Notes under the pieces: model-generated
Databases searched by the model: none
The model's input: the letters and a program-made list of their open reading frames with translations, nothing else
Told to the model about the DNA's origin: nothing
Part shown: in pieces, positions 6,026 to 61,529 of the stretch
Layout of the letters: each line of letters starts with the position of its first letter
Numbering within the stretch: position 1 is the stretch's first letter
From: Mustelus asterias
Lineage: Eukaryota
DNA: 64,000 nt
Direction: 5' to 3'
Assembly (NCBI RefSeq): GCF_964213995.1
Contig: NC_135830.1
Coordinates: 10,540,001-10,604,000 of the forward strand
Program-made: the position numbers and the translations under genes

Positions 6026-7135
6026 TCACTTGTGAACTCGTTGGTGTGTCTGCAGGTGGGATGACTGAGTGAACCCGTTCCCACACACGGTGCAGGTGAA
6101 TGGCCTCTCCCCAGTGTGAACTCGCTGGTGTCTCTGCAGATTGGTTAACTGAGTGAATCCCTTTCCACAGGCAGAGCAAGTGAATTGTTTCTCCCCAGTG
6201 TGAACTCGCTGGTGTACCCGCAGATAGGATGACATTTTAAATCTCTTTGAGCAGTGAGAGCAACTGAACGGTCTCTCCTCAGTGTGAATGCGCTGGTGGG
6301 ACATGAGAACCTGAGTGCTTTTGAAGTCGCTCCCACATTCAGAGCATTTATAGGGTCTCTCATTGCTGTGAGTGACTCTGTGTCTGCGCATGCTGGATAA
6401 CCAAGTGAATCCTTTCCCACACACAGGACAGTTGAACGGCCTCTCCCTGGAATGTACTCGCTGGTGTATCCGCAGGCTGGATAAGTCAGTGAATCCCTTC
6501 CCACACACAGGACAGGTAAACGGTCTCTCCGCAGTGTGAATTTGCTGGTGTGTCTGCAGATGACATAACTGAGTAAATCCGGTACCACAATCAGAACAGG
6601 TGAATGGTCTCTTCCCTGTGTGAATTCGTTGGTGTGTTTGCAGGTTGGATGAATCATAGAATCCCTTCCCACACACACAGCAGGTGAACGGTCTCTCCCC
6701 AGTGTGAATGCGTCGATGAATTTCCAGCTCAGATGGGAACCTGAATCCCTTCCCACAGTCCCCACATTTCCACGGTTTCTCTATGGTTCGGGTGTCCTTG
6801 TGACTCTCCAGGTTAAACAATCAGTTAAATCTCACACAGAACACGGGTACAGTCTCTCCCCACTGTGAATGCCGCAATGTTTTTTTCACTGGTTAAAGCT
6901 CTTTCGACAGTCAGTGCACTGGAACACTCTCACTCAGGTGTGTGCGTGAGACTTGGTAAATTCCCAGTCACGCTGATGTTTAAAATCTCCAGAAGCAAAA
7001 AGAACAGAGAAATATTTCTCCTTCTAGGTACAAAGGCTGATGATGTTCAGGACATGATGATTGAATGACTCTGTCAGATATTGATGTGACATTTGCTTTG
7101 AGATTACTGTCTGTAAATCCTCACCTTCTGATATT
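6026..7135 (-). CDS. C2H2 zinc-finger locus 2: uninterrupted 9-finger array (6026-6784), but the family start codon is ATA
   Basis: Nine canonical CX2C-X12-HX3H fingers with TGERP-like linkers; acceptor TTTTACAG before 7135; ACC ATA GAG at 6784-6782 where paralogs have ACC ATG GAG. Confidence 0.7.
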
Positions 7136-9522: not shown

Positions 9523-12329
9523 CTTTAACCTACATATTAGAAATCATAGAAACCCTACAGTGCAGAAGGAGGCCATTCGGCCCATCGAGTCTGCACCGAC
9601 CACAATCCCACCCAGGCCCTACCCCCACATATTTACCCGCAAATCCCTCTAACCTACGCATTTTAGGATTCTAAGGGGCAATTTTTAACCTGGCCAATCA
9701 ACCTAACCCGCACATCTTTGGACTGTGGGAGGAAACCGGAGCACCCGGAGGAAACCCACGCAGACACGAGGAGAACGTGCAAACTCCACACAGACAGTGA
9801 CCCGAGCCAGGAATCGAACCCAGGACCCTGGAGCTGTGAAGCAGCAGTGCTAACCACTGTGCTACCGTGCCGCCCCAATATTGATTGGTCGACTCAAATT
9901 GGACGTGGAGGGCTTGAGGAAGAGTTCTTGGAATGCTGTCGGGATTGTTTCATTGAACAGTATGTTACAGAACCTATGAGAGAGCGAGCTATCTTGGATC
10001 TGGTTCTGTAGGATTAAGGATCTTCTTGTGAAGGATCCTCTTGGGATGAGTGATCATAATATGGTGGAATTTCTGATACAGATGGAGGGTGAGAAAGGAG
10101 GGTCCCAAACCAGTGTCCTCTGCTTGAACAGAGGGGAGTACGATAGGATGAGGGTGGAATTGGCTAATGTAGACTGGGCGAGCAGACTGGTAGGTAGGAC
10201 AGCTGAGGAACAGTGGAGGATTTTTAAGGAGATTTTTTTAAGTACTCAGCAAAAATATATTCCGGTGATAAGGAAGGACTGTAAGAAAAAGGATAACCGG
10301 ACGTGGATAACGAAGGAAATAAAGGAGAGTATTAAAATAAAATCAGATGTGTACAGAGTGGCCAAAAATAGTGGAGAATTAGTGGATTGGGAAAGCTTTA
10401 AAGAAAAACAAAGAACGACTAAGAAAGCGATTAAGAAAGGAAAGATACATTATGAAACTAAACTAGCTCAAAATATAAACAATGATAGTAAAAGTTTTTA
10501 CAAGTATATAAAAAGGAATAGAGTGGCTAGAGTGAATGTTGGACCCTTGGAAGATGAGAGGGGGGATTTAATAGTGGAAAATCAGGAAATGGCTGAGACT
10601 TTAAATAAGTTCTTTGTGTCGGTCTTCACGGTGGAAGACACAAATAGTTTGCCGAATATTAGAGATCGAGAGTTGGTGGGAGGTGAGGTCCTCAATACAA
10701 TTACTGTTACTAAGGAGGTGGTGCTTGGTAGACTAATAGGACTGAAGGTAGACAAGTCCCCGGGCCCGGATGGAATGCATCCCAGGGTACTGAAAGAAAT
10801 GGCTGAGGTAATAGCAGATGCGTTAGTAGTAATTTATCAAAATTCGCTGGACTCTGGGGTAGTGCCGGCTGACTGGAAAATAGCTACTGTTACGCCGCTG
10901 TTTAAAAAAGGAAGTAGACAAAAGGCGGGTAACTACAGGCCGGTTAGCTTAACGTCCGTAGTTGGGAAGATGCTAGAGTCCATTATTAAAGAGGAAATAA
11001 CAGAGCACCTGAATAAGAATGGTTCGATCAAGCAGACGCAGCATGGATTCATGAAGGGAAAGTCGTGTTTGACGAATCTACTGGACTTTTATGAAGATGT
11101 CACTAGTGCGGTTGACAGAGGCGAACCGGTGGATGTGGTGTTTTTAGATTTCCAGAAGGCGTTCGATAAGGTGCCTCACAAAAGGTTGCTGCAGAAGATT
11201 GGGGTACACGGAGTTCGGGGTAAGGTGTTGGCGTGGATTGGGGATTGGCTATCTAACAGGAAGCAGAGAGTTGGGATAAATGGGTGCTTTTCTGGTTGGC
11301 AGTTGGTGACCAGTGGCGTGCCGCAGGGATCGGTGCTGGGGCCTCAATTGTTTACCATTTACATAGATGATCTGGAGGAGGGCTGAATCTAGGGTATTCA
11401 AGTTTGCTGATGACACGAAGGTGAGAGGGAAAGCGAATTGTGTGGAGGACGCGGAAGGTCTGCAGAGAGATTTGGATAGGCTGAGCGAGTGGGCGAGGAT
11501 CTGGCAGATGGAATATAACGTTAGCAAATGTGAGGTTATCCACTTTGGAAGAAATAATAGTAAATTGGAATATTATTTAAATGGAGAAAAATTACATCGT
11601 GCGACTGTACAGAGGGACCTGGGCGTCCTTGTGCACGAATCGCAAAAACTCAGTCTGCAGGTGCAGCAGGTGATCAAGAAGGCGAATGGAATGTTGGCCT
11701 TTATTGCGAGGGGGATAGAATATAAAAGCAGGGAGGTCTTGCTGCAACTGTACAAGGCACTGGTGAGGCCGCAACTGGAGTACTGTGTGCAGTTTTGGTC
11801 CCCTTATTTGCGAAAGGATATATTGGCCTTGGAGGGAGTGCAGAGAAGGTTCACCGGAGATGAGGGGTGTGGCTTATGAGGAGAGATTAAACAGATTGGG
11901 ACTGTACTCGTTGGAGTTTAGAAGGATGAGGGGTGATCTTATAGAGGCATATAAGATAATGAAGGGGCTGGATAGGGTAGAGGTGGAGAGATTCTTTCCA
12001 CTTAGAAGGGAAACCAGAACTAGAGGGCATAGCTTCAAAATAAGGGGGGGCCGGTTCAGAACAGAGTTGAGGGGGAACTTCTTCTCTCAGAGGGTAGTGA
12101 ATCTCTGGAATTCTCTGCCCATTGAAGTGGTGGAGGCTTCCTCGTTGAATATGTTTAAATCACAGGTAGATAGTTTTCTGATCGATAAGGGAATTAGGGG
12201 ATATGGGGAGCAGGCGGGTAAGTGGAACTGATTCGCTTCAGATCAGCCATGATCTTGTTGAATGGCGGGGCAGACTCGAAGGGCCAGATGGCCTACTCCT
12301 GCTCCTATTTCTTATGTTCTTATGTTCTT
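9523..12329 (+). mobile_element. 5'-truncated CR1 LINE (family B-related), ORF2 with a few lesions
   Basis: ORFs 10028-11386, 11367-11879 and 11785-12231 give the RT ([24 protein letters not shown]); (TTCTTATG)n tail. Confidence 0.93.
9539..9877 (-). mobile_element. Full-length V-SINE (HE1-like)
   Basis: GGGCGGCACGGTAGCACAGTGGTTAGC head, GGTTCGATTCC B-box, CR1-like tail; TSD ATATT (9534-9538 and 9878-9882) inside CR1 endonuclease codons DFNLH|IDW. Confidence 0.9.
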
Positions 12330-13477
12330 ACTGTGTTTACTCCAGAGAGCCAGGAATCAGATTTACAGAATGGATTCCTGTAATAGCAGCAATCCCATTG
12401 CTATACGTTGGTCAGACTAAGGGGAGTATTTAAACTGGACGCCATAGATGTATTAAAGGAAAACAAAATCATGGAACTTATGAACGATCTGAAATAATAT
12501 TGAGAGCAAAGAAATCAATCTGGAAAATTGTAGTCACTTTGCGTTGTTCCAGGAGAAGTGGGATTAGGTTGTGTAGATGTCAGGTTTTACACAGCACACA
12601 GTCAGCCTGTCGTTTCACCCTGGATGAAGAATCTCTGAATTGTACCATTCAAATCACTCAATGGGTTTATCAGGGGCCAGAATGTCTGCTCAGAAAAAGG
12701 AATGTTGGTGTGAAACCAATGAGAAGTAACACACACACTCACAGACACCCTCACACACACACAGACTCTCAGATGCCTCAAAATATCTCCTGTTACTTTA
12801 TTGTTCCTAGATTTTGGAAATAAATCCTGAATGAATTATAAAATCACACACAAATATTTGTTGAGCTTCCCCTGAAAGACATCGATACAGTTCATTTCAC
12901 TCCCTGTGGTCATGATTTCCATATTCTCACCACTCTTTGGGTGGAGAAATTTATCTTGGATTTCCGATTGGGTTTCTTGGCGACTGTCTTGTATTGATGG
13001 TCTCCAGTTTTGCCTTTCTCCAAAAGAAGAAACATTATTTCAAAACCTTTTATAATTTTGAAGCCCTCTATTAGGTTACTCCTCAGCCTTAATTTTTCAA
13101 GAAAGCGTGAGCGTGTCAATCCTTTCCTGATAGATAACCAAACACACAGTTTAAAAATCATTTATGGGATGTGGACATCGCGAGCTTGGCCAGCATCTAT
13201 TGCTAACCCCTGATTGACCTTGAGAAGGTGATGGTGAGCTGCTTTCTACATTTCTGATATCATCATTAAAAATCATCTCTGTACCTTTCTCCAGTGCCGA
13301 GATATCTTTTTTATAATACGGTGACCAGAATGGCATGCAGTGGTCGGTAAGATTCTTGATCAGGGAGTCACAGGTTATCCAAAAGTGGTTTGAGCTTATC
13401 CATGGTTTTAAATTAGAATATTAAGAAGCAACAATTTAGAAATGATGCATTATAAACAGGGGGAAAAAAACAGAAGA

Positions 13478-17629: not shown

Positions 17630-18504
17630 TCACTTGTGAATCTGTCGATGTGTCAGCAGGTTGGATTTCTGAGTGAAGCTCTTCCCACACACGGAGCAGG
17701 TGAACGGTCTCTCCCCAGTGTGAATTCGCTGATGGACAGTGAGATGAGATGATCGCCTGAATCCAGTCCCACAGTTAGAGCACCGGAATGGTCTCTCATC
17801 AGTGTGAATACGTTGATGGAGCATCAGGTCCCTGGGACGTTTATAGCAGTTCCCGCAGTCTGAACATTTGAAAGGTCTCTCCTCCATGTGAACTTGCCGG
17901 TGTGAAATGAGTTGAGATGATCGCCTGAACCCTGCTCCACACTGGGAGCATTTGAATGGTCTCTCGTCAGTGTGAACACGTTGATGGAGCATCAGCTCAC
18001 CAGAACATTTATAGCTTTTCCCACAGTCTGGACATTTAAAGGGTCTCTCCCCAGTGTGAATTCGCTGATGTGTCATGAGATGGGATGATTGAATGAATCC
18101 CTTCCCACACCAGCTTTTTCTCAGTGTGAAGTCGCTGGTGTATCAGTAGGGTGTATGACTGAGTGAATCCCTTCCCACACACAGAGCAGGTAAACGGCCT
18201 CTGCCCATTGTGACTGCATTGGTGAATTTCCAGCTCATATGGATAATTGAATCCTTTCCCACACTCCCCACATTTCCATGGTTTTTCTCCAGTGTGACTG
18301 CGCTTGTGTCTGGACAGGACAGCGAATCGTCTGAAATCTTGTCCACACACACAACACACGTATGGTTTCTCCTCACTGTGAACGGTGCTTTTTCCTTCCA
18401 TGTTCAAAATATTTTCCAGTTCTGATAAATTGGGTGACTCCATCAGATCCTGATGTGACGTTTGGTACAAGTTTCCTGACTGCATATCCTCCTCTTCTAA
18501 AACC
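17630..18504 (-). pseudogene. C2H2 zinc-finger locus 3, with one frameshifting deletion near 18110
   Basis: Acceptor TTTCACAG before 18504. ORF 18036-18485 (acidic leader + 3 fingers) and ORF 17630-18076 (5 more complete fingers) are separated by a truncated linker (EKKL|VWEG). Confidence 0.8.
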
Positions 18505-18834
18505 CTGTGAAATTAATTTAAAACAGAAAAAAGGGAGTGAGCGCGAACCCACAAAAACACAAAGGCAGGTTGTGAAATTGAGCTGAATGAATCTGGTAAT
18601 TTGTGGGGCAGGCGCTCGGAAAAAGTGACCATGAAAATCGCTGGATTGTCAAAAAAACAACAATTGATTTACTAATGTCCTTCAGGGAAGGGAACCTGTC
18701 ACCCAGTCTGGGTCTCTCAAGACTCTGGGCACTGTGGGAGCAGGAGAGACATAACGGTGGACACGCAGGAGGTGAAGGAACCAGATTTCAGATCAGCCAT
18801 GACATCAATTGGTCACATGGGATTTTTAAAAATT

Positions 18835-25479: not shown

Positions 25480-26650
25480 TAAACATCACATCAGAATCTG
25501 ATGGAGTCGCCCAATTTATCAAAACCTGAAATCATTGTGTTGTAAACATGGAAGGAGAAAGTACCATTCACAGTGGGGAGAAACCGTACGTGTGTTGTGT
25601 GTGTGGACGAGGCTTCATCTGACTGTAGAACCTGGAGAGAGACAAAGACACCCACACCATGGAGAAGCTGTGGAAATGTAAGGACTGTGGGAAGGGATTC
25701 AGTTACTCAGTTATGCTGGAAACTCATCAGTGCGTTCACACTGGGGAGAGACCATTTACCTGCACCGAGTGTGGGAAGGGATTCACTAATTCATCACATC
25801 TATTGAGACACCAACTAGTTCACACTGCGGAGAGACCTTTCAAATGCATGGACTGTGCGAAGTGCTACAAAAATTCTGGGGAACTGATACGTCATCAACA
25901 TGTTCACAATGACATGAGACCATTCAGGTGCTCTCATTGTGGGACTGGGTTCACACAATCATCTGACCTCATTGTACACCAGTGGATTCACACTGGGGAG
26001 AGGCCGTTCACCTGAAAAGAGTGTGGGAAGGGATTTGCTCAGATGTCCACTCTGCTGACATACCAGCTGATTTACACTGGGAAGAGACCATTCACCTGCC
26101 CTGAGTGTGGGAAGAGATTCATTAATTCATCCAACTTGCTGAGGCACCAACACGTTCACACTGGGGAGAGGCCATTCACTTGCACGGAGAGTGGGAAGGG
26201 ATTCACTAATTCATCCCATCTGCTGATGCACCAGCAAGTTCACACTGACGAGACTGAACTGCGGGAAGTGCAACAAAAGTTCTGGGGAACTGCTGTCCCA
26301 TCAACAAATCCACACTGACTAGAGATGATTCAAGTGTTGCCATTTTGGTCTGAGTTTAGGGAATCTCATCTCATTATACACCAGTGCATTGAAACTGAGA
26401 AGAGAATGTTCACTCCCTCTGACTATGGGAAGGGAGTCATTCATTCGTCCCACCTGCTGAGTCAGAGTCATAGAGGTTTACAGCATGGAAACAGGCCCTT
26501 CGGCCCAACTTGTCCATGCCGCCCTTTTTTGTTAAACCTCAAAGCTAATCCCAATTGCCCGCATTTGGCACCTATCCCTCTCTACCCATCGTACCCATGT
26601 AACTATCTAAATGCTTTTTAAAAGATAAAATTGTACCCACCTCTACTACT

Positions 26651-29600
26651 AAGAACATAAGAACATAAGAAATAGGAGCAGGAGTAGGCCATCTAGCCCC
26701 TCGAGCCTGCCCCGCCATTCAATAAGATCATGGCTGATCTGACGTGGATCAGTACCACTTACCCGCCTGATCCCCATAACCCTTAATTCCCTTACCGATC
26801 AGGAATCCATCCATCCGCGCTTTAAACATATTCAGCGAGGTAGCCTCCACCACCTCAGTGGGCAGAGAATTCCAGAGATTCACCACCCTCTGGGAGAAGA
26901 AGTTCCTCCTCAACTCTGTCTTAAATCGACCCCCCTTTATTTTGAGGCTGTGTCCTCTAGTTTTAACTTCCTTACTAAGTGGAAAGAATCTCTCCGCCTC
27001 CACCCTATCCAGCCCCCGCATTATCTTATAAGTCTCCATAAGATCCCCCCTCATCCTTCTAAACTCCAACGAGTACAAACCCAATCTCCTCAGCCTCTCC
27101 TCATAATCCAAACCCCTCATCTCCGGTATCAACCTGGTGAACCTTCTCTGCACTCCCTCCAATGCCAATATATCCTTCCTCATATAAGGGGACCAATACT
27201 GCACACAGTATTCCAGCTGCGGCCTCACCAATGCCCTGTACAGGTGCATCAAGACATCCCTGCTTTTATATTCTATCCCCTTCGCAATATAGGCCAACGT
27301 CCCATTTGCCTTCTTGATCACCTGTTGTACCTGCAGACTGGGCTTTTGCGTCTCATGCACAAGGACCCCCAGGTCCCTTTGCACGGTAGCATGTTTTAAT
27401 TTGTTTCCATTGAGATAGTAATCCCATTTGTTATTATTTCCTCCAAAGTGTATAACCTCGCATTTCTCAACGTTATACTCCATTTGCCATATCCTCGCCC
27501 ACTCACTCAGCCTGTCCAAATCTCTCTGCAGATCTTCTCCGTCCTCCACACGATTCACTTTTCCACTTATCTTTGTGTCGTCTGCAAACTTCGTTACCCT
27601 ACACTCCGTCCCCTCCTCCAGATCATCTATATAAATGGTAAACAGTTGCGGCCCGAGTACCGATCCCTGCGGCACGCCACTAGTTACCTTCCTCCAACCG
27701 GAAAAACACCCATTTATTCCGACTCTTTGCTTCCTGTCGGATAGCCAGTCCCCAATCCACTTTAACACACTACCCCCAACTCCGTGTGCCCTAATCTTCT
27801 TCAGCAGCCTTTTATGGGGCACCTTATCAAACGCCTTTTGGAAATCCAAAAACACCGCATCCACCGGTTCTCCTCCATCAACCGCCCTAGTCACATCTTC
27901 ATAAAAATCCAACATGTTCGTCAAGCACGACTTTCCCCTCATGAATCCATGCTGCGTCTGATTGATCGAACCATTTCTATCCAGATGCCCTGCTATCTCC
28001 TCTTTAATAATGGATTCCAGCATTTTCCCTACTACAGACGTTAAGCTGACCGGCCTATAGTTACCCGCCTTTTGTCTCCTTCCTTTTTTAAACAGCGGCG
28101 TAACATTAGCCGCTTTCCAATCAACCGGCACTACCCCAGAATGCAACGAGTTTTGATAAATAATCACTAACGCATCCACTATTACCTCTGACATTTCTTT
28201 CAATACCCTGGGATGCATTCCATCCGGACCCGGGGACTTGTCCACCTTCAGTCCCATTAGTCTACCCAGCACTGCCTCTCTGGTAACATTAATCGTATTA
28301 AGTATTTCTCCTGCTGCCAACCCTCTATCGTTAATATTTGACAAACTATTTGTGTCCTCCACCGTGAAGACCGACACAAAAAACGTATTTAAAGACTCAG
28401 CCATATCCTCATTTCCCACTATTAACTCCCCCCTCTCGTCCTCCAAGGGTCCAACATTCACTCTAGCCACTCTATTCCTTTTTATATATTTATAAAAACT
28501 TTTACTATCATTTTTTATATTAATTGCTAGCCTAGCTTCATAGTCTATCCTTCCTTTCTTTATCGCTTTCTTAGTCTCTCTTTGTTGTTTCTTAAATTTT
28601 TCCCAATCACTTGTTTCTCCACTATTTTTGGCCACTCTGTACGCAGCTGTTTTTATTTTAATACTCTCCTTTATTTCCTTCGTTATCCACGGCTGGTTCT
28701 CCCTTTTCTTACAATCCTTGTTTTTTGCTGGAATATATTTTTGCTGAGAACTGAAAAGGATCTCCTTAAAAATCCTCCACTGTTCCTCAGCTATCCTACC
28801 TGCCAGCCTGCTCTCCCAGTCTACCTTAGCCAATTCATCCCTCATCCTATCATATTTCCCTCTGTTCAAACAGAGGACACTGGTTTGAGACCAAACTTTC
28901 TCCTCTTCCATCTGAATCAGAAATTCGACCATATTGTGGTCACTAGACCCAAGAGGGTCCTTCACAATAAGATCCTTAATTCTACCTACCTCGTTACACA
29001 ATACCAGATCCAAAATAGCTCGTTCCCTTGTCGGTTCCGTAACATGCTGTTCAAGGAAACTATCCCGACAGCATTCTAAGAACTCTTCCTCCATTCCACC
29101 CTTACTGACTTGAGTCTGCCAGTCAATGTGCATGTTGAAGTCCCCCATGATTATTGCCGTTCCGTTTTTACACGCATCCCTTATCTGCTTGTTTATAGCC
29201 CTCCCTACCTCAACATTATTATTTGGGGGCCTATATACCACACCTACTAGTGTCTTTCTCCCTCTACTATTCCTCATCTCTACCCATAATGATTCCACGT
29301 TTTGTTCCTCAGAGCCTATGTCATCCCTCAGTACTACCCTGATATTATCTCTTATTAATAGCGCGACCCCACCACCTTTTCCTTCCTGTCTATTCTTCCT
29401 AAACGCCTGATACCCCTGGATATTCATCTCCCAGTCCTGGTCACCTTTCAGCCATGTTTCTGTAATGGCCACTAGATCGTACCCACTTGTGCTGATTTGC
29501 ACCATCAACTCATTCACCTTGTTCCGAATGCTTCGTGCATTCAGGCAAAGTGTCCTTATTCCAGCTTTTATCTGGACCCGCTTTGATGAGTCGCGAACAC

Positions 29601-30165
29601 CCTCTCCCTCTACTCCCTTATCTAAATTACCGCCTTCATTCACTTGCACCCTCTCCTCTACCATTAATTTTGTAATTCCCCTTACCCCTGCATCCTCCCC
29701 CCCATCAATTAGTTCCTTGATCCTAGTCAACTCTTCTAGCTCCCCTCCCCCCAACCTATCTAGTTTAAATTCTCCCCAGTAGCCTTAGCCAACCTACCGG
29801 CCAGGATATTGGTCCCCGTGTGATTCAAGTTCCACCCGTTTTTTGTATACAGATCACCCCTGCCGCTAAAGAGGTCCCAATGGTCCAGGAACCTGAATCC
29901 CTGCCCCCTGCACCACTCCCTCAGCCACACATTCATCCTCCACCTCACTCCATTCCTGCCCTCACCTTCCCGTGGCACAGGCAGTAATCCTGAGATTACT
30001 ACCTTTGCTTTCCTCTTTCTCAGCTGTCTCCCTAATTCCCTGTACTCCCTTTTCATGACCCCTTCTCCCTTCCTACCCACATCAGCGGTACCAATATGTA
30101 CCGCTACCTCAGGCTTCTCTCCCTCCCACCTCAGGATTTCCGGGACCCGACTAGCGACATCCTGG
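26651..30165 (-). mobile_element. CR1 family B element: ORF1 3' half and intact ORF2
   Basis: (TTCTTATG)n tail at 26651; 5'-truncated within the ORF1 esterase (HIGTAD); CTGG microhomology at the 5' junction. Confidence 0.95.
26749..29769 (-). CDS. CR1 ORF2 (APE endonuclease + reverse transcriptase), uninterrupted, ~1000 aa
   Basis: LNARS, ITETW, GGGVA, YRPP, GDFN, SDH endonuclease motifs; [27 protein letters not shown] motifs; no stops. Confidence 0.93.
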   Translation of the reverse strand, partial: FKLDRLGGGELEELTRIKELIDGGEDAGVRGITKLMVEERVQVNEGGNLDKGVEGEGVRDSSKRVQIKAGIRTLCLNARSIRNKVNELMVQISTSGYDLVAITETWLKGDQDWEMNIQGYQAFRKNRQEGKGGGVALLIRDNIRVVLRDDIGSEEQNVESLWVEMRNSRGRKTLVGVVYRPPNNNVEVGRAINKQIRDACKNGTAIIMGDFNMHIDWQTQVSKGGMEEEFLECCRDSFLEQHVTEPTRERAILDLVLCNEVGRIKDLIVKDPLGSSDHNMVEFLIQMEEEKVWSQTSVLCLNRGKYDRMRDELAKVDWESRLAGRIAEEQWRIFKEILFSSQQKYIPAKNKDCKKRENQPWITKEIKESIKIKTAAYRVAKNSGETSDWEKFKKQQRETKKAIKKGRIDYEARLAINIKNDSKSFYKYIKRNRVARVNVGPLEDERGELIVGNEDMAESLNTFFVSVFTVEDTNSLSNINDRGLAAGEILNTINVTREAVLGRLMGLKVDKSPGPDGMHPRVLKEMSEVIVDALVIIYQNSLHSGVVPVDWKAANVTPLFKKGRRQKAGNYRPVSLTSVVGKMLESIIKEEIAGHLDRNGSINQTQHGFMRGKSCLTNMLDFYEDVTRAVDGGEPVDAVFLDFQKAFDKVPHKRLLKKIRAHGVGGSVLKWIGDWLSDRKQRVGINGCFSGWRKVTSGVPQGSVLGPQLFTIYIDDLEEGTECRVTKFADDTKISGKVNRVEDGEDLQRDLDRLSEWARIWQMEYNVEKCEVIHFGGNNNKWDYYLNGNKLKHATVQRDLGVLVHETQKPSLQVQQVIKKANGTLAYIAKGIEYKSRDVLMHLYRALVRPQLEYCVQYWSPYMRKDILALEGVQRRFTRLIPEMRGLDYEERLRRLGLYSLEFRRMRGDLMETYKIMRGLDRVEAERFFPLSKEVKTRGHSLKIKGGRFKTELRRNFFSQRVVNLWNSLPTEVVEATSLNMFKARMDGFLIGKGIKGYGDQAGKWY

Positions 30166-31496
30166 TAGCTTGTTCCAGACACTCACCACCCTCTGTGTGA
30201 AAAAATTGCCCCACTGGACACTTTTGTATCTCTCCCCTTAAACCTATGCCCTCTAGTTTTAGACTCCCCTACCTTTGGGAAAATATATTGACTATCTACC
30301 TTGTCTATGCCCCTCATTATTTTATAGACTTCTATAAGGTCACCCCTCAGCCTCCTACGCTCCAGAGAAAAAAGTCCCAGTCTATTCAGCCTCTCCTTAT
30401 AACTCAATCCATCAAGTCCCGGTAGCATCCGAGTAAATCTTTTCTGCACTCTTTCTAGTTTAATAATATCGTTTCTATAATAGGGTGACCAGAATTGCAC
30501 ACAGTATTCCAAGTGTGGCCTTAGCAATGTCTTGTACAACTTCAAAAAGACGTCCCAACTCCTGTATTCAATGTTCTGACCGATGAAACCAAACGTGCCG
30601 AATGCCTTCTTCACCACTCTGTCCATCTGTGACTCAACTTTCAAGGAGCTATGAACATGTACCCCTCGATCTCTTTGTTCTGTAACTCCCCAATGCCCTA
30701 CCATTAACTGAGTAAGTCCTGCCCTGGTTCAATCTACCAAAATGCATCACCTCGCATTTGTCTAAATTAAACTCCATCTGCCATTCGTCAGCCCACTGGC
30801 CCAATTGATCAAGATCCCGCTGCAATTGGAGATAACCTTCCTCACTGTCCACCATGCCAGCAATCTTGGTGTCATCTGCAAACTTACTAACCATGCCCCC
30901 TATATTCTCATCCAAATCATTAATATAAATGACAAATAACAGTGGGCCCAGCACTGATCCCTGAGGCACACCGCTGGTCACAGGCCTCCAGTTTGAAAAA
31001 CAACTCTCTCCAACTAACAGAAGCCAATTTTGTATCCATTTAGATACCTCAACCTGGATCCTGTGAGATTTAACTTTATGCAACAACCTACCATGCGGTA
31101 CCTTGTCAAAGGCCTTGCTAAAGTCCATGTAGACAACATCAACTGCACTGCCCTCATCTACCTTCTTGGTTACCCCTTCAAAAAACTCAATTAAATTTGT
31201 GAAACATGATTTTCCACTCACAAAGGCATGCTGACTGTCCCTAATCAGTCCTTGCATCTCTAAATGCCTGTAGATCCTGTCTCTCAAAATACCTTCCAAT
31301 AATTTACCCACCATAGATGTGAGGCTAACTGGCCTGTAGTTCCCAGGCTTTTCCCTGCAGCCCTTTTTAAACAAAGGCGCAACATTTGCCACCCTCCAAT
31401 CTTCAGGCACTTCACCTGTGACTATCGATCATTCAAATATTTTGGCTGGGGGACCCGCAATTTCCTCCCTAGCCTCCCACAACATCCTGGAATATA

Positions 31497-34400: not shown

Positions 34401-35531
34401 TACCTTCCCCAATACCTCACCACCCTCACTGACTTCTGGACTACAACTCCCTTTCCCACTCCCCTGACAAATTAGTTTAAACCCCCCTGAAGAGCCGTAA
34501 CAAATTTCCCTCCGAGGATATTGGTGCCCCTCTGGTTCAGGTGCACCCCGTCCTGTTTGTACAGGTCCCACCTTCCCCAGAACGTGTTCCAATTATCCAC
34601 GTATCTGAAACCCTCCCTCCTACACCATCCCTGCAACCACATATTTAACTGCACTCTCTCCCTGTTCCTCAACTCGCTATCACGTGGTACCGGCAACGTA
34701 CCAGAGATGACCACATGTTTCGTCTTGGCTCTCAGCTTCCAGCCCAGCTCCAGAAATTCCTGCTTTAAATCCCCGTCCCTTCTCTTACCTATGTCATTGG
34801 TACCAATGTGCACCACGACTTGTGACTGTTTCCCCTCCCCCTTCAGAATCTGGAAAACACGGTCTGAGACATCACGGACCTTGGCATCCGGTAGGCAACA
34901 TACCATCCGTGAGTCTCTTTTGCTGCCACAGAACCTCCTATCTATCCCTCTAACTAACGAGTCCCCAATAACTATCGCCCTCCCGCTCTCCCCCTTTCCC
35001 TCCCGAGCCACAGAGACGGACACAGTGCTGGAGATCCTCTCACTGCGGCTCCCCACTGGTATGTCATCCCCCTCAACCGTATCCAAAGCGGAATACTTGT
35101 TGCTAAGGGGAACGACCACCGGGGATCCCTGCACGGACTGCTTCCTCCCAGCCCCTCTCACCGTCACCCATCTGCTTTCAATCCTCGGAGTAACTGTATT
35201 CCTAAAGCTTGTGTCTATGGCCATCTCTGCGTCCCTGATGATCCTAAGTTCATCCAACTCCAGCTCCAGTTCCCTAACACGGTTTTGGAGGAGCTGCAGA
35301 TGGGTGCACTTCCCACAGGTGTAATCAGCAGGGACACTGTCGTCGTCCCTCACCTCAAACATAGTGCAAGAGGAACATTGCACTGCCTGCACACCCATCC
35401 CCTCTAGATACCTTGCCAGTACCAGGTAGAAAGTGCAAAAATGAATTCAACTCACCCCTGCTCGCCCTTTCAGCCTAAAACCTGTGAGCCAAAGTCTTAT
35501 AGCTCACACTCTGCTTCCCACACACTCCACT
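31497..35531 (-). mobile_element. Near full-length CR1 family C element (intact ORF1; ORF2 with one nonsense codon at 33033-33035)
   Basis: (TTCTATG)n tail; TSD GAATATA at 31490-31496 and 35532-35538; ORF2 pieces 33033-34592 and 31578-33032 are in the same frame. Confidence 0.95.
34472..35398 (-). CDS. CR1 ORF1: zinc finger/leucine zipper + SGNH esterase domain, 308 aa
   Basis: CSSC..CGKC, heptad LQNRVRELELELDEL, IVIGDSL, HIGTND, DGVHL. Confidence 0.92.
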   Translation of the reverse strand: MGVQAVQCSSCTMFEVRDDDSVPADYTCGKCTHLQLLQNRVRELELELDELRIIRDAEMAIDTSFRNTVTPRIESRWVTVRGAGRKQSVQGSPVVVPLSNKYSALDTVEGDDIPVGSRSERISSTVSVSVAREGKGESGRAIVIGDSLVRGIDRRFCGSKRDSRMVCCLPDAKVRDVSDRVFQILKGEGKQSQVVVHIGTNDIGKRRDGDLKQEFLELGWKLRAKTKHVVISGTLPVPRDSELRNRERVQLNMWLQGWCRREGFRYVDNWNTFWGRWDLYKQDGVHLNQRGTNILGGKFVTALQGGLN

Positions 35532-43115: not shown

Positions 43116-43760
43116 AGAGACTGTCTGGCAGCCTGCATGGAGATTTCCAGCTCTCTGTGTCCAGGACAGGAAGCAGTGAGCATGGACCTGTCAATCAGCC
43201 TCAATCAGCACCTTCAGGAGAATTGGGAGGGTGAATATTAGATACAGCAGAGTGAGAATGGAGGGAGAGTGTGTGGGATGGAGATTCACAGCTTTTGGGG
43301 AATGAGAGAGGAAAGAATGTTCCATAGAAACTAGAATTGTCTGTTCTGAATTTCTATCCTGTATTGACTGTGATGACTTTTGTAAATTGTTTTTACAGGC
43401 TATCAGAAGGTGAGGATTTACAGACAGAAATCTTAAACCAAACATCATGTCAACATCTGACAGAGTCACTCAATTCAACGGGACCTGAATATCATCGGCC
43501 TTTGAATCGAGAAGGAGAAATGTTTTTCTGTTCTGTCTGCTTCAGGAGATTTTAAATATCAGTGTGACTGGAAAAGCACCGAATCTCACAAACACCAGGG
43601 AGAGAGTGTTCCAGTGCACTGCATGTGGAAAACACTTCAGTTGCACAGCCTGAAAAAACATCGCAGCATTCACAGCGGGGAGAGACTGTACCCGTGTTCT
43701 GTGTATGGATGAGGGTTCAACTGATTGTCCGACCTGGAGAGTCACAAGGACACCTGCACC

Positions 43761-44351
43761 ATGGAGAAACGGTGGAAATGTGGGGACTGTGGGAAGGGAT
43801 TTAGATACCCTTCTCACCTGGAAACCCATCGACGCAGCCACACTGGGGAGAGACCGTTCACCTGTTCTCAGTGTGGGAATGGATTCAGTCGATTATCCAC
43901 TCTGCAGACACATCAGAGAGTTCACAATGAGGAAAGGCCATTCATCTGCTTTCATTGTGGGAAGAGATTCACTCAGTCATCCGCCCTGCAGACACACCAG
44001 CGAGTTCACAATGAGGAGAGACCATTCATCTGCTCTCAGTGTGGGAAAGGATTCACTCAGTCATCCAGCCTGCAGACACACCAGCGAGTTCACACTAGGG
44101 AGAGGCCGTTCACCTGCTCTCAATGCGGGAATGGGTTCACTCAGTTATCCCATCTGAAGACACACCAACGGTTTCACACTGGGGAGAGACCATTCACCTG
44201 CCCTCAGTGCAAGAAGGGATTTGCTCAGTTATCTACTCTTCAGACACACCAGCGAGTTCACACCAAGGAGAGACCATTCTCCTGCTCTCAGTGTGGGAAA
44301 GGATTCACTCAGTTATCCAACCTGCGGAGACACCAGCGAATTCACAAGTGA
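43761..44351 (+). CDS. C2H2 zinc-finger protein, 196 aa, 7 fingers, no KRAB (locus 6, intact)
   Basis: Kozak ACCATGG at 43761; seven complete fingers; TGA at 44349-44351; exon acceptor TTTTACAG before 43399. Confidence 0.85.
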
Positions 44352-45139: not shown

Positions 45140-46066
45140 ATGGGTGTGAAGGCAGTGCAATGTTCCTCTTGCACTATGTTCGAGGTGAGGGACGACGTCA
45201 GTGTCCCTGTTGATTATACCTGTGAGAAGTGCATCCATCTGCAGCTCCTCCAAAACCGTGTAAGGGAACTGGAGCTGGAGTTGGAGGAACTTAGGATCAT
45301 TAGGGATGCAGAGATGGCCATAGACAGAAGCTTCAGGGATACAGTTACTCCGAGGAATGAAAATAGATGGGTGACGGTGAGAGGGGCTGGGAAGAAGCAG
45401 TCGGTGCAGGGATCCCCTGTGGTCGTTCCCCTTAGCAAGAAGTATTCCGCTTTGGATACGGTTGAGGGGGACGACATACCAGTGGTGAGCCGCAGTGAGA
45501 GGATCTCCGGCACTGAGTCCGTCCCTGTGGCTCAGGAGGGTAAGGAGGAGAGCGGGAGGGCAATAGTTATTGGGGACTCATTAGTTAGAGGGATAGATAG
45601 GAGGTTCTGTGGCAGCAAAAGAGACTCGAGGATGGTTTGTTGCCTAGCGGATGGCAGGGTCCGTGACGTCTCGGACCGTGTTTTCCGGATTCTTAAGGGG
45701 GAGGGGAAACAGTCACAAGTCGTGGTACACATTGGTACCAACGACATAGGTAAGAGAAGGGACGGGGATTTAAAACAGGAATTTCGGGAGCTGGGCTGGA
45801 AGCTGAGAGCAAAGACAAAACATGTGGTCATCTCTGGTACGCTACCGGTGCCACGTGATAGCGAGTTGAGGAACAGGGAGAGAGTGCAGTTAAACATGTG
45901 GTTGCAGGGATGGTGCAGGAGGGAGGGTTTCAGATACGTGGATAATTGGAACACGTTCTGGGGAAGGTGGGACCTCTACAAACAGGACGGGGTGCACCTG
46001 AGCCAGAGGGGCACCAATATCCTGGGAGGGAAATTTGCTACGGCTCTTCAGGGGGATTTAAACTAA
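45140..46066 (+). CDS. CR1 ORF1: zinc finger/leucine zipper + SGNH esterase, 308 aa
   Basis: CSSC..CEKC, IVIGDSL, HIGTND, DGVHL. Confidence 0.92.
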   Translation: MGVKAVQCSSCTMFEVRDDVSVPVDYTCEKCIHLQLLQNRVRELELELEELRIIRDAEMAIDRSFRDTVTPRNENRWVTVRGAGKKQSVQGSPVVVPLSKKYSALDTVEGDDIPVVSRSERISGTESVPVAQEGKEESGRAIVIGDSLVRGIDRRFCGSKRDSRMVCCLADGRVRDVSDRVFRILKGEGKQSQVVVHIGTNDIGKRRDGDLKQEFRELGWKLRAKTKHVVISGTLPVPRDSELRNRERVQLNMWLQGWCRREGFRYVDNWNTFWGRWDLYKQDGVHLSQRGTNILGGKFATALQGDLN

Positions 46067-48760
46067 TTTGTCAGGGGAGTGGGAAAAGGAGTTGTAGTCC
46101 GGAAGTCAGTGTTGAGGGTGGTGAGATATTGGGGAAGGTATCAAGGTCAAGGGTGGGTACCGGTAGACAGGAAGATGGGTTGAAGTGTGTCTACTTCAAT
46201 GCAAGGAGCATCCAGAACAAGGTGGATGAACTTGGGGCGTGGATTGCTACTTGGGACTACGATGTTGTGGCCATTACGGAGACATGGGTAGAACAAGGAC
46301 AGGAATGGTTGTTGGACGTTCCGGGGTATAGATGTTTCAGTAAGTGTAGGGAAGCTGGTAAAAGAGGTGGAGGAGTAGCATTGTTAATCAAGGATAGTTT
46401 AACGGCTGCGGAAAAGCACTTTGAGGGGGATATGCACACTGAGGTAATATGGGCTGCAGTTAGAAACAGGAAAGGAGCGGTCACGTTGCTAGGAGTTTAC
46501 TATAGGCCCCCAAATAGTAATAGAGATGTGGAGGAAGAAATTGCAAAGCAGATTATGGATGCGTGTGGGGGTCACAGGGTAGTTGTCATGGGGGACTTTA
46601 ACTTTCCAAATATTGATTGGAACCTTTGTAGGTCAAATAGTTTGGATGGGGCACTTTTTGTGCAGTGTGTGCAGGAGGGTTTCCTGACACAATATGTGGA
46701 TAGGCCGACAAGGGGTGAGGCCACATTGGATTTGGTACTGGGAAATGAACCGGGCCAAGTGTTAGATTTGGTTGTGGGAGAGAACTTTGGAGATAGTGAC
46801 CACAATTCGGTGTCTTTTGTTATTGCAATGGAGAGGGATAGGGCCGGACGGCAGGGCAAGGCTTACAATTGGGGGAGAGGTAATTATGATGCGATTAGGC
46901 AAGAATTAGGGGGCATAAGATGGGAACAGAAACTGTCAGGGAAAGGCACTGATGAAAAGTGGAACTTTTTCAAGGAACAAATACTGGGTGTCCTTGATAG
47001 GTATGTCCCTGTCAGGCAGGGAGGAAATGGCCAAGTGAGGGAACCGTGGTTCACAAAAGAGGTGGAATGTCTTGTGAAAAGGAAGAGGGAAGCTTATGTA
47101 GGGATGAGGAAACAAGGTTCAGATGGCTCGATTGAGGGTTACAAGTTAGCAAGGAATGAGCTGAAAAAGGGGCTGAGGAGAGCTAGGAGGGGACATGAGA
47201 AGTCCTTGGCGGGTCGGATCAAGCAAAACCCCAAGGCTTTTTACTCTTATGTGAGGAATAAAAGAATGACCAGGGTGAGGTTAGGGCCGGTCAAGGACAG
47301 TGGTGGGAACTTGTGTATGGAATCAGTAGAGATAGGCGAGGTGATGAATGAATACTTTTCTTCAGTGTTCACCAAGGAGAGGGGCCATGTTTTTCAGGAA
47401 GAGAAGGTGTTACAGGCTAATAGGCTGGAGGAAATAGATGTTCGGAGGGAGGATGTATTGGCAGTTTTGAATAAACTGAAGGTCGATAAGTCCCCTGGGC
47501 CTGATGAAATGTATCCTAGGATTCTTTGGGAGGCGAGGGATGAGATTGCAGAGCCTTTGGCTTTGATCTTTGGGTCCTCGCTGTCCACGGGGATGGTGCC
47601 AGAGGACTGGAGAGTGGCAAATGTTGTTCCTCTGTTTAAGAAAGGGAATAGAAATGACCCTGGTAATTATAGACCGGTTAGTCTGACTTCGGTGGTTGGT
47701 AAATTGATGGAAAAGGTCCTTAGGGATGGGATTTACGACCATTTAGAAAGATGCAGATTAATTCGGGATAGTCAGCACGGATTTGTGAAGGGCAAATCGT
47801 GCCTCACAAATTTGATAGAATTTTTTGAGGAGGTAACTAGGTGTGTTGATGAAGGTAGGGCAGTTGATGTCATATACATGGATTTTAGTAAGGCGTTTGA
47901 TAAGGTCCCCCATGGTCGGCTTATGATGAAAGTAAGGAGGTGTGGGATAGAGGGAAAGTTGGCCGATTGGATAGGTAACTGGCTATCTGATCGAAGACAG
48001 AGGGTGGTGGTGGATGGAAAATTTTCGGACTGGAGGCAGGTTGCTAGCGGAGTGCCGCAGGGATCGGTGCTTGGTCCTCTGCTCTTTGTGATTTTTATTA
48101 ATGACTAAGAGGAGGGGGCTGAAGGGTGGATCAGTAAATTTGCTGATGACACCAAGATTGGTGGAGTAGTGGATGAGTTGGAGGGCTGTTGTAGGCTGCA
48201 AAGAGACATAGCTAGGATGCAAAGCTGGGCTGAAAAATGGCAAATGGAGTTTAACCCTGATAAATGTGAGGTGATTCATTTTGGTAGGACTAATTTAAAT
48301 GTGGATTACAGGGTCAAAGGTAGGGTTCTGAAGACTGTGGAGGAACAGAGAGATCTTGGGGTCCATATCCACAGATCTCTAAAGGTTGCCACTCAAGTGG
48401 ATAGAGCTGTGAAGAAGGCCTATAGTGTGTTAGCTTTTATTAACAGGGGGTTGGAGTTTAAGAGCCGTGGGGTTATGCTGCAACTGTACAGGACCTTGGT
48501 GAGACCGCATTTGGAATATTGCGTGCAGTTCTGGTCACCTCACTATAAGAAGGATGTGGAAGCGCTGGAAAGAGTGCAGAGGAGATTTACCAGGATGCTG
48601 CCTGGTTTGGAGTGTCGGTCTTATGAGGAAAGGTTGAGGGAGCTGGGGCTGTTCTCTCTGGAGCGGAGGAGATTGAGGGGTGACTTAATAGAGGTTTATA
48701 AAATGATGAAGGGGATAGATCGAGTGAACGTTCAAAGACTATTTCCTCGGGTGGATGGAG

Positions 48761-49938
48761 GCCAAAAGGCCTTTGACAAGGTGCCTCACGGGAGACTGCT
48801 GAGTAAAATAAGGGCCCATGGTATTCGAGGCAAGGTACTAACATGGATTGACGATTGGTTGTCAGACAGAAGGCAGAGAGTTGGGATAAAAGGTTCTTTC
48901 TCAGAATGGCAACCGGTGACAAGTGGTGTCCCGCAGGGTTCAGTGTTGGGGCCACAGCTGTTCTCTTTATATATTAACGATCTAGATGACGGGACTGGGA
49001 GCATTCTGGCCAAGTTTGCCGATGATACAAAGATAGGTGGAGGGGCAGGTAGTATTGAGGAGGTGGGGAGGCTGCAGAAAGATTTAGACAGTTTAGGAGA
49101 GTGGTCCAAGAAGTGGCTGATGAAATTCAACGTGGGCAAGTGCGAGGTCGTACACTTTGGAAAAAAGAATAGAGGCATGGACTATTTTCTAAACGGTGAC
49201 AAAATTCATAATGCTAAAGTGCAAAGGGACTTGGGAGTCCTAGTCCAGGATTCTCTAAAGGTAAACTTGCAGGTTGAGTCCGTAATTAAGAAAGCAAATG
49301 TAATGTTGTCATTTATCTCAAGAGGCTTGGAATACAAAAGCAGGGATGTACTTCTGAGGCTTTATAAAGCACTGGTTAGGCCCCATTTGGAGTACTGTGA
49401 GCAATTTTGGGCCCCACACCTCAGGAAGGACATACTGGCACTGGAGCGGGTCCAGCGGAGATTCACACGGATGATCCCAGGAATGGTAGGCCTGACATAC
49501 GATGAACGTCTGAGGATCGTGGGATTATATTCATTGGAGTTTAGGAGGTTGAGGGGAGATCTGATAGAAACTTACAAGATAATGAACGGCTTAGATAGGA
49601 TGGACGTAGGGAAGTTGTTTCCATTAACAGGGGAGACTAGGACGCGGGGGCACAGCCTTAGAATAAAAGGGAGTCACTTTAGAACAGAGATGAGGAGAAA
49701 TTTCTTCAGCCAGAGAGTGGTGGGTCTGTGGAATTCATTGCCACAGAGGGCTGTGGAGGCCGAGACGTTGAGCGTCTTCAAGACAGAAATTGATAAATTC
49801 TTGATTTCTCGAGGAATTAAGGGCTATGGGGAGAGAGCGGGTAAATGGAGTTGAAATCAACCATGATTGAATGGTGGAGTGGACTCGATGGGCCGAATGG
49901 CCTTACTTCCGCTCCTATGTCTTATGGTCTTATGGTCT
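48761..49938 (+). mobile_element. 5'-truncated CR1 family D nested in family C
   Basis: Host sequence GATGGAG|(C)TATTACAAG is split; (CTTATGGT)n tail; open RT fragment. Confidence 0.92.
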
Positions 49939-58999: not shown

Positions 59000-59391
59000 T
59001 CATTGACATGAATTAACGGTGTCCATCAGAGCAAGGGAAATGTTCACAAAACTGGGTTTACCGCTGGATTTGTCAACTGTTCTGTTGATGATCTTCAAGG
59101 GGATGGCTTCATGTCCCACCACACAGGAGTAAGAAGCGCCGCTGGACCACTCCTCTGCTGCAATGGATAACAGGCTGTACATGAAGAAGGAGCTATTCCC
59201 GCTCTCCGCGACCACCTCGGTGTTCCTGTAGTTCCCAGGATTCACCGGCTTGTCGTTGACGGTCCACTTGACGAAGATCTCTCGAGGGGAGAAACGTCTC
59301 ACTAAGCAGCTGAGGGAGACGAATCTCTGAGCGGAGACTTCTTCTGCCGAGGGCAAGAGGACAGAGACGAACGGTTCCCGCGGATTTGGAT
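59000..59391 (-). CDS. IGHM: IgM CH4 exon + secretory tailpiece
   Basis: TTTCTGCAG acceptor; [17 protein letters not shown]; tailpiece [20 protein letters not shown] with N-glycan site and penultimate Cys; internal donor AGCG|GTAAAC at 59062/59061 for TM splicing. Confidence 0.96.
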
Positions 59392-59888
59392 CTGCAGAAA
59401 ATGTACAATAGATGTCAATAAACTGGAGAATTCTGGAGACAATGAAACTGCTGGCTAGGTATCAGAAAAATGTGCTTCGCTTTCGATTTTAAATGTTTCT
59501 ATTTTTGACTTCCAGCTTGGAGGAGAGGTGAACGCAATTGTTTTCTCAAATAACTCAGCGGGTTGGACTGGAAAGTTTCAGAAAGTTTACAGCACTGAAT
59601 CAGGCTCTTCGGCCCAACTGATCTGCTTTTTTTTATTGGTTTTCATGCTCCACATCAGGCTCCTCCCTCGTTATTCGATCTAAACCCAATAACATCGCCT
59701 TCAGTTCACTTTTCATTCATCAACACATCAAATTTCCCCGTAAAAATATATGCAGGACCAGAGTCTTTAGTTAGTAGAGTTTCCACTCAGGGGACACCAT
59801 TAATGCACTGAATACTGAATATTGACCAGTACACTGACACTGGAAGTAGACACAGTGACGCATTTATTGCTTCAATCTCTCAGCTCAC

Positions 59889-60631: not shown

Positions 60632-60930
60632 GGGGAGGCAGTGGTATTGTCAATGGACTTGTAATCCAAGAGACCGAGGACAAGACTCTAATTGAAGAGA
60701 CACGGATTCGAATCTCACCACTGCAAATGGTGAAATTTGAATTCAATAAAAATCTATGATTAAAAGTCAAATGATCATCATGAAGCCGTTGTTGTAAAAA
60801 CCCACCTGGTTCACGAATGCCCTTTAAAAAAGTAAATCTGCTGTCTTTATCTGGCCTGGCATGCATGTGACTCCAGATCCACAGCAATGTGGTTGACACT
60901 TAAGTGCCCTCAGGGATGGGAAATAAATGC
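60632..60930 (+). mobile_element. tRNA-derived SINE (DeuSINE/SacSINE1-like) in the CH2-CH3 intron
   Basis: Homologous to 18835-19187. Confidence 0.62.
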
Positions 60931-61115
60931 ACATCTCATGAAGGAATAACAAAAATTGCTGTTGTGATGAAATTCTGAATGGGGCACTGTCTTAATGCAG
61001 CAAACCACATGGCAGCAAATTCGAAGTTGTTCTGTGCTTTGTACTAACTTTAATAGACCCCTAATTCCGATTAACATCGGAATGGTATATTTTATCCTCG
61101 GTTTGAGTCTCTTAC

Positions 61116-61427
61116 CCAGAGATCCGCTGATGTTCTGACTCTGAGTGAATCCTTGATGAGTGACCTGGCAGGTATAGACCGCTTTGCTGATCCATTCCTG
61201 AGCGGAGACTGTCAGCCGACTGCTGGCCGAGAAGTTCCTGTTCACTTCATAGGCGGGAGAGGTGATAATTCCTGAATCCATGGGTTGTCCATTCTTCAGC
61301 CACTTCACCGTCATTGACTTTGGCTGGAAATCGATGATTGAACAGACGATGGTTGCAAATTTTCTGCTGGTGATTTCTTCACTGGAACTCACGGTGAGGA
61401 TAACGGTTGGGGTGATAACGATTGGGC
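61116..61427 (-). CDS. IGHM: IgM CH2 exon
   Basis: TTGTTGAAG acceptor, GTAAG donor; [16 protein letters not shown]. Confidence 0.95.
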
Positions 61428-61529
61428 CTTCAACAAACAAATGTTCAGACGTTACTTGAAGATTCAATTGACATCAATTAAAATTAGTTCTTTTATATGA
61501 GCAAAATACCTGCCGATTTGAGAATTATA

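Follow-up and report, generated by a model that had tools for sequence, protein, structure and literature searches.

Introduction

The question raised by this locus is how ribosomes reach the second open reading frame (ORF2) of a CR1 long interspersed element (LINE), which encodes an APE endonuclease and a reverse transcriptase (RT), after translating the esterase-encoding ORF1 that lies upstream. The stretch of DNA analysed here, termed the window, comprises 64,000 nucleotides (nt) of Mustelus asterias (assembly GCF_964213995.1, contig NC_135830.1, positions 10,540,001 to 10,604,000) and is packed with CR1 copies, one of which, assigned to a family called B, preserves the ORF1/ORF2 junction on the minus strand. 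How the ORF2 of a LINE is translated when one RNA carries both genes is considered unclear (PMC3708506, PMC5009743), and CR1-group elements account for 22-34% of the genomes of sharks and rays (PMC13343379) and for 11.8% of chicken chromosomes (PMC11835228).

The answer proposed here, which sequence comparison makes likely, is a -1 programmed frameshift at the end of ORF1 that would yield an ORF1p-ORF2p (esterase-endonuclease-RT) fusion in a gag-pol-like manner. The junctions carry a slippery heptamer in phase with ORF1, an adjacent stop codon, a short overlap of the two frames and an open, ATG-poor linker, and this arrangement is conserved through switches of heptamer class. The junction signal is real and ancient and is probably functional, and its main support lies in the in-phase switching among heptamers in distant lineages, together with the ATG-free, open -1 linker.

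The family B junction

The family B copy (26651..30166, minus strand, with approximate ends placed by the junction sequences, host DNA continuing on both sides) is a 5'-truncated CR1 LINE inserted into the 3' end of an older CR1 copy of family D, uninterrupted copies of which lie at 5031 and 42909. It retains the C-terminal half of ORF1 (29760..30166), which encodes an SGNH/GDSL esterase (PF13472, E 5e-10) ending in ...GENLN before the stop, and the ORF1 profile matches the ORF1 esterase of PDB 4C1B (E 3e-35). ORF2 (26749..29784), uninterrupted over 1011 codons from stop to stop, encodes the APE endonuclease and RT (PF03372, PF14529, PF00078) and is followed by a 3' untranslated region (UTR) with a predicted local hairpin and a short tandem-repeat tail (26651..26748). 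The copy thus has the ORF2 domains and, in its C-terminal half only, the esterase ORF1 of a CR1 LINE, as well as the short tandem-repeat tail and the 5' truncation, which we take to be CR1-defining traits. By eye, the junction also resembles rows labelled CR1 in PMC13343379.

Read on the minus strand, the junction is GAG AAT TTA AAC TAG, in which the heptamer T_TTA_AAC (29763..29769) stands in the X_XXY_YYZ phase with ORF1 and is followed directly by the ORF1 stop codon TAG (29760..29762), as a first-pass annotation made from the letters alone had described. That annotation was also right in having the -1 frame run into an intact ORF2 of about 1000 amino acids: this frame (F K L D R L G G G ...) is already open 5 codons ahead of the heptamer, which is therefore located inside the overlap of the two frames, and continues for 1006 codons from it. 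A short ORF1/ORF2 overlap has reportedly been seen in turtle CR1 as well, in the 1997 work of Kajikawa. A G-tract, the candidate stimulator (29742..29752), starts 10 nt past the heptamer, and a -1 frame linker of 76 codons (29542..29769) leads from the shift site to the first endonuclease motif. An in-frame ATG (29662..29664, with T at -3 and G at +4) is indeed present upstream of the endonuclease, at 35 codons past the heptamer rather than the approximately 30 first given, and two out-of-frame ATGs (29705 and 29693), which start ORFs of 7 and 3 codons, come before it.

Since this copy lacks the start of ORF1, it is unable to express ORF1 or to use the signal itself, and any selection would thus have acted on master elements. 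A second family-B-like copy (9880-12330, plus strand, 85% identical) is truncated within the endonuclease and so has no junction. In contigs of four sequencing runs, the bin 29764-29792 is the deepest (summed) in two of the four, no variant occurs at 29700-29795 among the 40 of 123 rows listed, and one loose contig end carries the heptamer and TGA at the junction; these contigs are not used as evidence, because contig depth cannot rank places and the listing covers only a minority of the rows.

Families B and C compared

Two further junctions in the window belong to another CR1 family, C, in copy 1 (46057..46066, plus strand) and copy 2 (34472..34481, minus strand), both with T_TTA_AAC followed by TAA and both without an in-frame ATG before the endonuclease. 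The window contains 31 occurrences of TTTAAAC on its two strands, three of which have a stop directly after them, and all three are CR1 junctions (B once, C twice). The heptamer, its phase, the adjacent stop and a downstream G-run are common to both families, as the first reading of the locus had it.

That reading had also taken family B as independent support for selection at the RNA level, on the ground that its flanks do not align with those of family C. This applies to the downstream linker, which is unalignable (78 of 188 aligned bases identical), but not to the upstream flank, which is ungapped with 86 of 131 bases identical (66%; blastn E 3e-17 over 344 bases), because the same esterase C-terminus is encoded in both families. 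A convergent origin of the two junctions is rejected since the upstream DNA aligns, and, the junctions being homologous, family B does not count as independent support. The two ORF2s share 46% identity, and codons at residues conserved between them are identical for 6 of 29 Leu and 8 of 12 Asn; given a conserved Leu-Asn (LN) end, the chance of sharing T-TTA-AAC is estimated at roughly 0.04-0.06, near 0.05, and the chance expected for T-TTA-AAC given LN from codon usage in B and C is 0.010-0.015. Family B therefore lends modest, inherited support, weak alone, and selection at the RNA level is well supported by the wider lineage evidence rather than by the comparison of B with C. In family C, a second in-phase heptamer lies one codon upstream and overlaps the main one (34472-34484, minus strand; 46054-46066, plus strand), being G_GGT_TTA in copy 2 and G_GAT_TTA in copy 1.

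Slippery ends in distant lineages

Distant ORF1 ends were located with an esterase-motif pattern that does not contain the heptamer. This pattern detected 12 loci in contigs of genomes, where animal-type DNA sits within bacterial assemblies, and 15 in contigs of metagenomes; when five of the genomes were searched with a profile, another 23 loci came up, most of which overlap the earlier ones. With two loci that run off a contig end dropped, 28 distinct ORF1 ends were obtained, including the three of the window. A looser esterase pattern gave 15 loci, of which the 4 new ones were examined and added no lineage, an amniote pattern had no match in genome contigs, a first scan of genomes gave 0 of 56, and viral contigs yielded nothing useful and plasmids no match. 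The bacterial assemblies G001-G005, which hold loci L003-L014, carry animal-type LINE DNA, with 19 ORF1 matches in G001 (17.8 Mb), and this points to host contamination. The hosts of the distant loci would be non-vertebrate animals, and for one locus family a relative is found among annotated tubeworm proteins (P0202).

At 15 of the 28 ORF1 ends, the -1 frame stays open as far as the endonuclease motif, and these 15 junctions represent 8 lineages at less than 50% endonuclease identity (L005 and L015, too short for the identity matrix, were assigned to the L007 group by their linkers). Loci L023-L029 were placed in lineages by endonuclease identity and are putative members of the CR1 clade. An in-phase heptamer lies within the last five codon positions in 6 of the 8 lineages by a strict definition and in 7 by a relaxed one, compared with 44 (0.52%) and 77 (0.91%), respectively, of 8486 other codon positions; the binomial probability of about 8e-9 for the lineage heptamers assumes independence, and the lineages are not fully independent.

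The heptamers differ among lineages. T_TTA_AAC plus stop is found in B, C and the L007 group, and G_GGA_AAC plus stop in L023 and, after a post-esterase tail of 133 residues, in L026. L027 has G_GAT_TTT, one codon and the stop after a tail of 80 residues, so that both long tails still end on a slippery site, and L029 has G_GGT_TTT and T_TTT_TTA three to four codons ahead of the stop; the spacing from heptamer to stop is zero codons in B, C and most other lineages. Thus, the letters of the heptamer change and its class and phase are kept, which is expected of a slippage signal and not of a protein end. At the endonuclease motif, used as a control, Leu and Asn codons vary and Asn is AAT in 13 of 15 copies; at the junction, Asn is AAC in 12 of the 12 Asn-ending cases among the 15 intact junctions. 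Through these class switches, long tails and codon controls, conservation at the junction exceeds what the protein needs. The endonuclease tree, with 7 of its 10 inner branches open, is too weak to order the heptamer switches.

Vertebrate consensuses and ORF1 protein ends

The consensus table of PMC13343379 contains 23 instances of T_TTA_AAC plus stop (12 TAG, 8 TAA and 3 TGA), and in 18 of the 21 rows viewed the motif stands at the CR1 ORF1 end; coming from a motif-biased search and the reading by eye of noisy consensuses, this count shows breadth and not frequency. Judging from their abbreviations, the rows include alligator, saltwater crocodile, bearded dragon, bullfrog, coelacanth, bowfin and a teleost row labelled Crack, in addition to elephant shark, catshark, dogfish, sawfish and stingray. 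Two dogfish consensuses (SquAca_CR1-3 and SquAca_CR1-18) carry the heptamer and a stop in the 5' UTR as well, and AldAff_Crack-2, labelled Crack, has a CR1-type esterase end and junction. The passages returned from two older CR1 supplements (PMC4316615, PMC2817409) contained only ORF2 3' ends, in which a G-F-K-L stretch includes the motif by chance.

At the protein level, the named homologues of family C ORF1 come from sharks, skates and rays. Among near homologues, 37 of 48 reach the profile end and 34 of these 37 end in LN; among distant representatives, 106 of 147 reach it and 62 of the 106 end in a heptamer-compatible dipeptide (LN 50, GN 9, plus KN, KK and GL). Such dipeptides account for 4-5% of internal dipeptides (5% in the distant set). 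The LN enders include lizard, snake, swallow and tortoise proteins, and the distance from their D-G-x-H motif to the end is 25, 26, 27, 32 or 39 residues. An AlphaFold model of 308 residues, with a mean predicted local distance difference test (pLDDT) score of 66, has its last helix end at residue 302 and leaves LN (307-308) in a free tail; the solved ZfL2-1 esterase is matched as far as profile position 304 of 310.

P0199, a stingray RefSeq model named hydroxyacid oxidase 2 isoform X1, reads from a CR1 esterase into the -1 linker and endonuclease, the name being a misannotation. P0200, with endonuclease, RT and esterase in one frame, was rejected as a natural fusion because its domain order is wrong and it looks like a nested insertion.

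The linker and the downstream G-tract

In none of the 8 lineages does a stop codon interrupt the -1 frame between shift site and endonuclease, over 10-78 codons, and the other frames have up to 10 and 18; in family B, the counts are none in the -1 frame, 10 in frame 0 and 5 in the +1 frame. The shuffle product of 1e-11 for this openness is partly circular, the representatives having been picked as open copies. Upstream of the heptamer, the -1 frame opens 1-50 codons earlier in the distant loci. An in-frame ATG within the linker occurs in family B and in none of the other seven lineages, and the first Met of family C lies 125 or 165 codons into the -1 frame. In most lineages, therefore, the linker holds no AUG from which the whole endonuclease could be made.

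In retroviral and coronaviral sites, the spacing of the stem-loop or pseudoknot is 5-9 nt. At the present junctions, no stable or covarying 3' stem-loop was found, pseudoknots not having been modelled directly. A minority of known stimulators start 12-15 nt downstream and are tied to trans-acting factors, shifting in pea enation mosaic virus requires a nearby stop, and in synthetic constructs G-quadruplexes promote shifting, with a natural case not known (PMC5009743). A run of at least four G starts exactly 10 nt past the last ORF1 codon in B, C, the L007 group and L023, and 9 nt past it in L028; starts of such runs make up 0-1.5% of downstream positions. The same spacing is seen in several crocodilian and shark rows of PMC13343379. 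The G-tract, which also codes for linker glycines, may be a stimulator of the shift. Pairing of the G-tract with the 3' UTR was rejected as an explanation: for family B it is the best in the element, but ORF2 controls equally rich in G did no worse in 9-82% of cases, and the C-rich 3' UTR stretch has a local pairing partner, which counts against long-range pairing.

A frameshift model

In the proposed mechanism, a frameshift signal would have been inherited across the LINEs of the CR1 group that carry an esterase ORF1. Most ribosomes would end ORF1 at its stop and a minority would slip back one base on U_UUA_AAC, with tRNA-Leu and tRNA-Asn re-pairing with UUU and AAA. The slipped ribosomes would bypass the stop and read the linker into ORF2, and the product would be an esterase-linker-endonuclease-RT fusion of about 1,300 residues, made alongside a surplus of free ORF1p as Gag-Pol is alongside Gag; for family B, the predicted fusion junction is ...E-N-L-N-L-D-R-L-G-G-G. 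The pause could come from the adjacent stop, the G-tract at +11 or both, rather than from a pseudoknot. The downstream ATG of family B may add free ORF2p and is unlikely to be the sole route; frameshifting, reinitiation and a downstream ATG need not exclude one another.

A stronger version, which is plausible but somewhat short of an even chance, holds that in CR1 elements from non-vertebrates to sharks, reptiles and birds the endonuclease-RT is made only as a fusion, and that the stop and the G-tract drive the shift without RNA structure. The G-tract would then act as a linear element at the mRNA entry of the ribosome, possibly bound by protein or folded as a quadruplex, and the ORF1p part of the fusion would be a membrane-binding esterase.

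Evidence against frameshifting and alternative routes

Several observations weigh against a frameshift signal. Thirteen of the 28 junctions are not open and are read as damaged copies; 12 of them resemble the L006/L007 group and either are truncated or show indels, an altered heptamer or premature stops. L017, a ninth lineage, has a broken linker and no canonical heptamer (one base off), and one of the eight open lineages, L028, ends in G_AAT_TTT plus stop, likewise one base off a canonical site. Among the 106 distant esterase proteins that reach the profile end, 44 lack a compatible end, some of these, unsorted, resembling L2-type or truncated calls. Only 4 of the 8 lineages have the G-run at +10. 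No stable fold lies downstream of the B site (z +0.3 to +1.1 at four lengths), the family C fold reaches z -3.1 at one of four lengths in one copy and not in the other, and the B/C consensus fold is weak, with 2 of 24 pairs compensatory. A Met is found 2 (L023) and 4 (L026) residues before the endonuclease Asn, presumably, by the anatomy of the L1 endonuclease, within the first strand of that domain. In family B a usable ATG is present, and chance alone would leave the 31 codons ahead of it open in 9% of cases. A search for longer proteins gave no convincing natural fusion: one of four hits reads esterase-FKL-linker-endonuclease, and this protein is a single automated gene model. Finally, in 3 of 18 vertebrate rows (ScyCan_CR1-1a, SquAca_CR1-17a and SquAca_CR1-6c), the junction reads UAAUG, with the AUG in the ORF2 frame (PMC13343379).

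These UAAUG rows are the main evidence for termination-reinitiation, as a rival or a second route, in which ribosomes would restart in the -1 frame at an overlapping AUG (UAAUG) or at a non-AUG codon and produce free ORF2p, the G-tract helping to hold the 40S subunit. This route, which is unlikely as the general explanation, also fits the short overlap and the open linker, and the mechanism has been described for the UAAUG stop-start of SART1 (PMC5972666) and proposed, as unconventional reinitiation, for mammalian L1 (PMC3708506). However, it leaves unexplained why ORF1 ends are in phase and of slippery class with a changing identity. Moreover, most junctions have TAG, which is unable to form UAAUG, the codon after the stop varies, the heptamer lies 1 (L027) and 3-4 (L029) codons ahead of the stop, and a SART1-type stop/AUG overlap is absent in B and both C copies. 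In the UAAUG families, reinitiation may operate alongside frameshifting.

It is very improbable that ORF2 of family B is made only from the ATG at 29664, through scanning reinitiation, internal entry or a spliced RNA, with the heptamer as a relic. This ATG is in frame, 41 codons ahead of the endonuclease Asn, and the open stretch before it could have arisen by chance (P 0.09), but its -3 context is weak, the two out-of-frame ATGs come first, family C and six other lineages have no such linker ATG, and family B keeps the heptamer, the stop and the spacing of the G-run.

Hardly more credible, and largely refuted by the class switches, is a protein-level constraint under which the esterase would need a C-terminal Leu-Asn and the codons would match by ancestry and codon bias: LN is invariant in the 30 rows of alignment A1 and TTA is the commonest Leu codon in some non-vertebrate lineages (0.41-0.59), but ends switch to GN, GNF, DFH and GFLGRV, tails reach 133 residues, LN lies in the free tail of the model, the ZfL2-1 match stops short of the profile end, and the expected chance of T-TTA-AAC given LN in B and C is low.

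Other features of the window

Three CR1 families are nested between 26460 and 35500: B (about 30166-26651) splits a family D copy, which at about 31495 adjoins the tail of family C copy 2. A few host bases were apparently lost on insertion of B, and no target duplication is seen at its junctions. ORF2 of family C copy 1 (48109-49854, plus strand) runs in frame, near 48760, into the RT of another CR1 family, which gives a chimeric open frame of 581 codons. Immunoglobulin C1-set domains are found at 59000-59461 (minus strand, E 5e-21) and 60910-61473 (minus strand, E 1e-19), and these frames are probably constant-region exons of a heavy-chain gene. C2H2 zinc-finger arrays are located among the CR1 copies at 6026-6820 (minus strand, by Pfam), 17630-18512 (minus strand) and 43725-44351 (plus strand), and also, by eye, at about 26040-26300.

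Significance and comparison with known systems

Full-text literature searches, the scope of which did not extend to Haas 1997, Kajikawa 1997, Kapitonov and Jurka 2003, Kojima 2005 or Repbase notes, returned no report of frameshifting in CR1; it is possible, though on balance doubtful, that those works or notes already suggest it. The word "frameshift" does not occur in the available main text of PMC13343379, PMC4120745 and PMC3905857, nor do "overlap" and "translat" in that of PMC13343379, and the first 300,000 of the 449,034 characters of PMC5009743 contain no mention of CR1. If frameshifting takes place, the enzyme would be tied in cis to the esterase shell, the ORF1p:ORF2p ratio would be set as in retroviruses, and the usual absence of a CR1 ORF2 start codon before the endonuclease would be explained. 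It would also change the annotation of CR1 ORF2 and the calling of intact copies, and would represent a natural frameshift without obvious 3' structure, in which the G-tract or the stop may do the work. If the fusion were the only source of the enzyme, no programmed frameshift in animal genomes would be more widespread, and CR1 would depart clearly from the view that a LINE makes its two proteins separately.

The family B copy agrees with vertebrate CR1 LINEs in its esterase ORF1, APE-RT ORF2, 5' truncation and short-repeat tail, these elements being abundant in sharks and rays (PMC13343379, PMC4120745, PMC3905857). SART1 and L1 resemble CR1 in that ORF2 is on a bicistronic LINE RNA, and three shark CR1 consensuses share UAAUG with the former; unlike the CR1 model, they make separate proteins and have no described heptamer, and L1 has a 63-nt spacer in contrast to the overlapping ORFs seen here. 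TRE5-A and TRE3-A of Dictyostelium are APE-type LINEs that, according to the legend of a review, need a -1 frameshift for ORF2 (PMC5911963). In these non-LTR (long terminal repeat) elements, too, ORF2 lies in the -1 frame and frameshifting is given as the way to it, so that the idea is not new for LINEs in general; they differ from CR1 in host and ORF1, and the legend passage names no slippery site or test.

A further parallel is with retroviral and coronaviral -1 frameshifting. The sites described here differ in belonging to a non-LTR host element, with an adjacent stop and a G-run at +11 and no stem-loop found. They share with the viral sites the same heptamers and phase, enzymes encoded in the -1 frame without a start of their own, and a structural protein upstream (PMC5009743); T_TTA_AAC is among the most shifty heptamers, and the other junction heptamers are also known shift sites (PMC5009743). 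The frameshift proposed for CR1 would thus be a known mechanism in a class of elements where it is not established.
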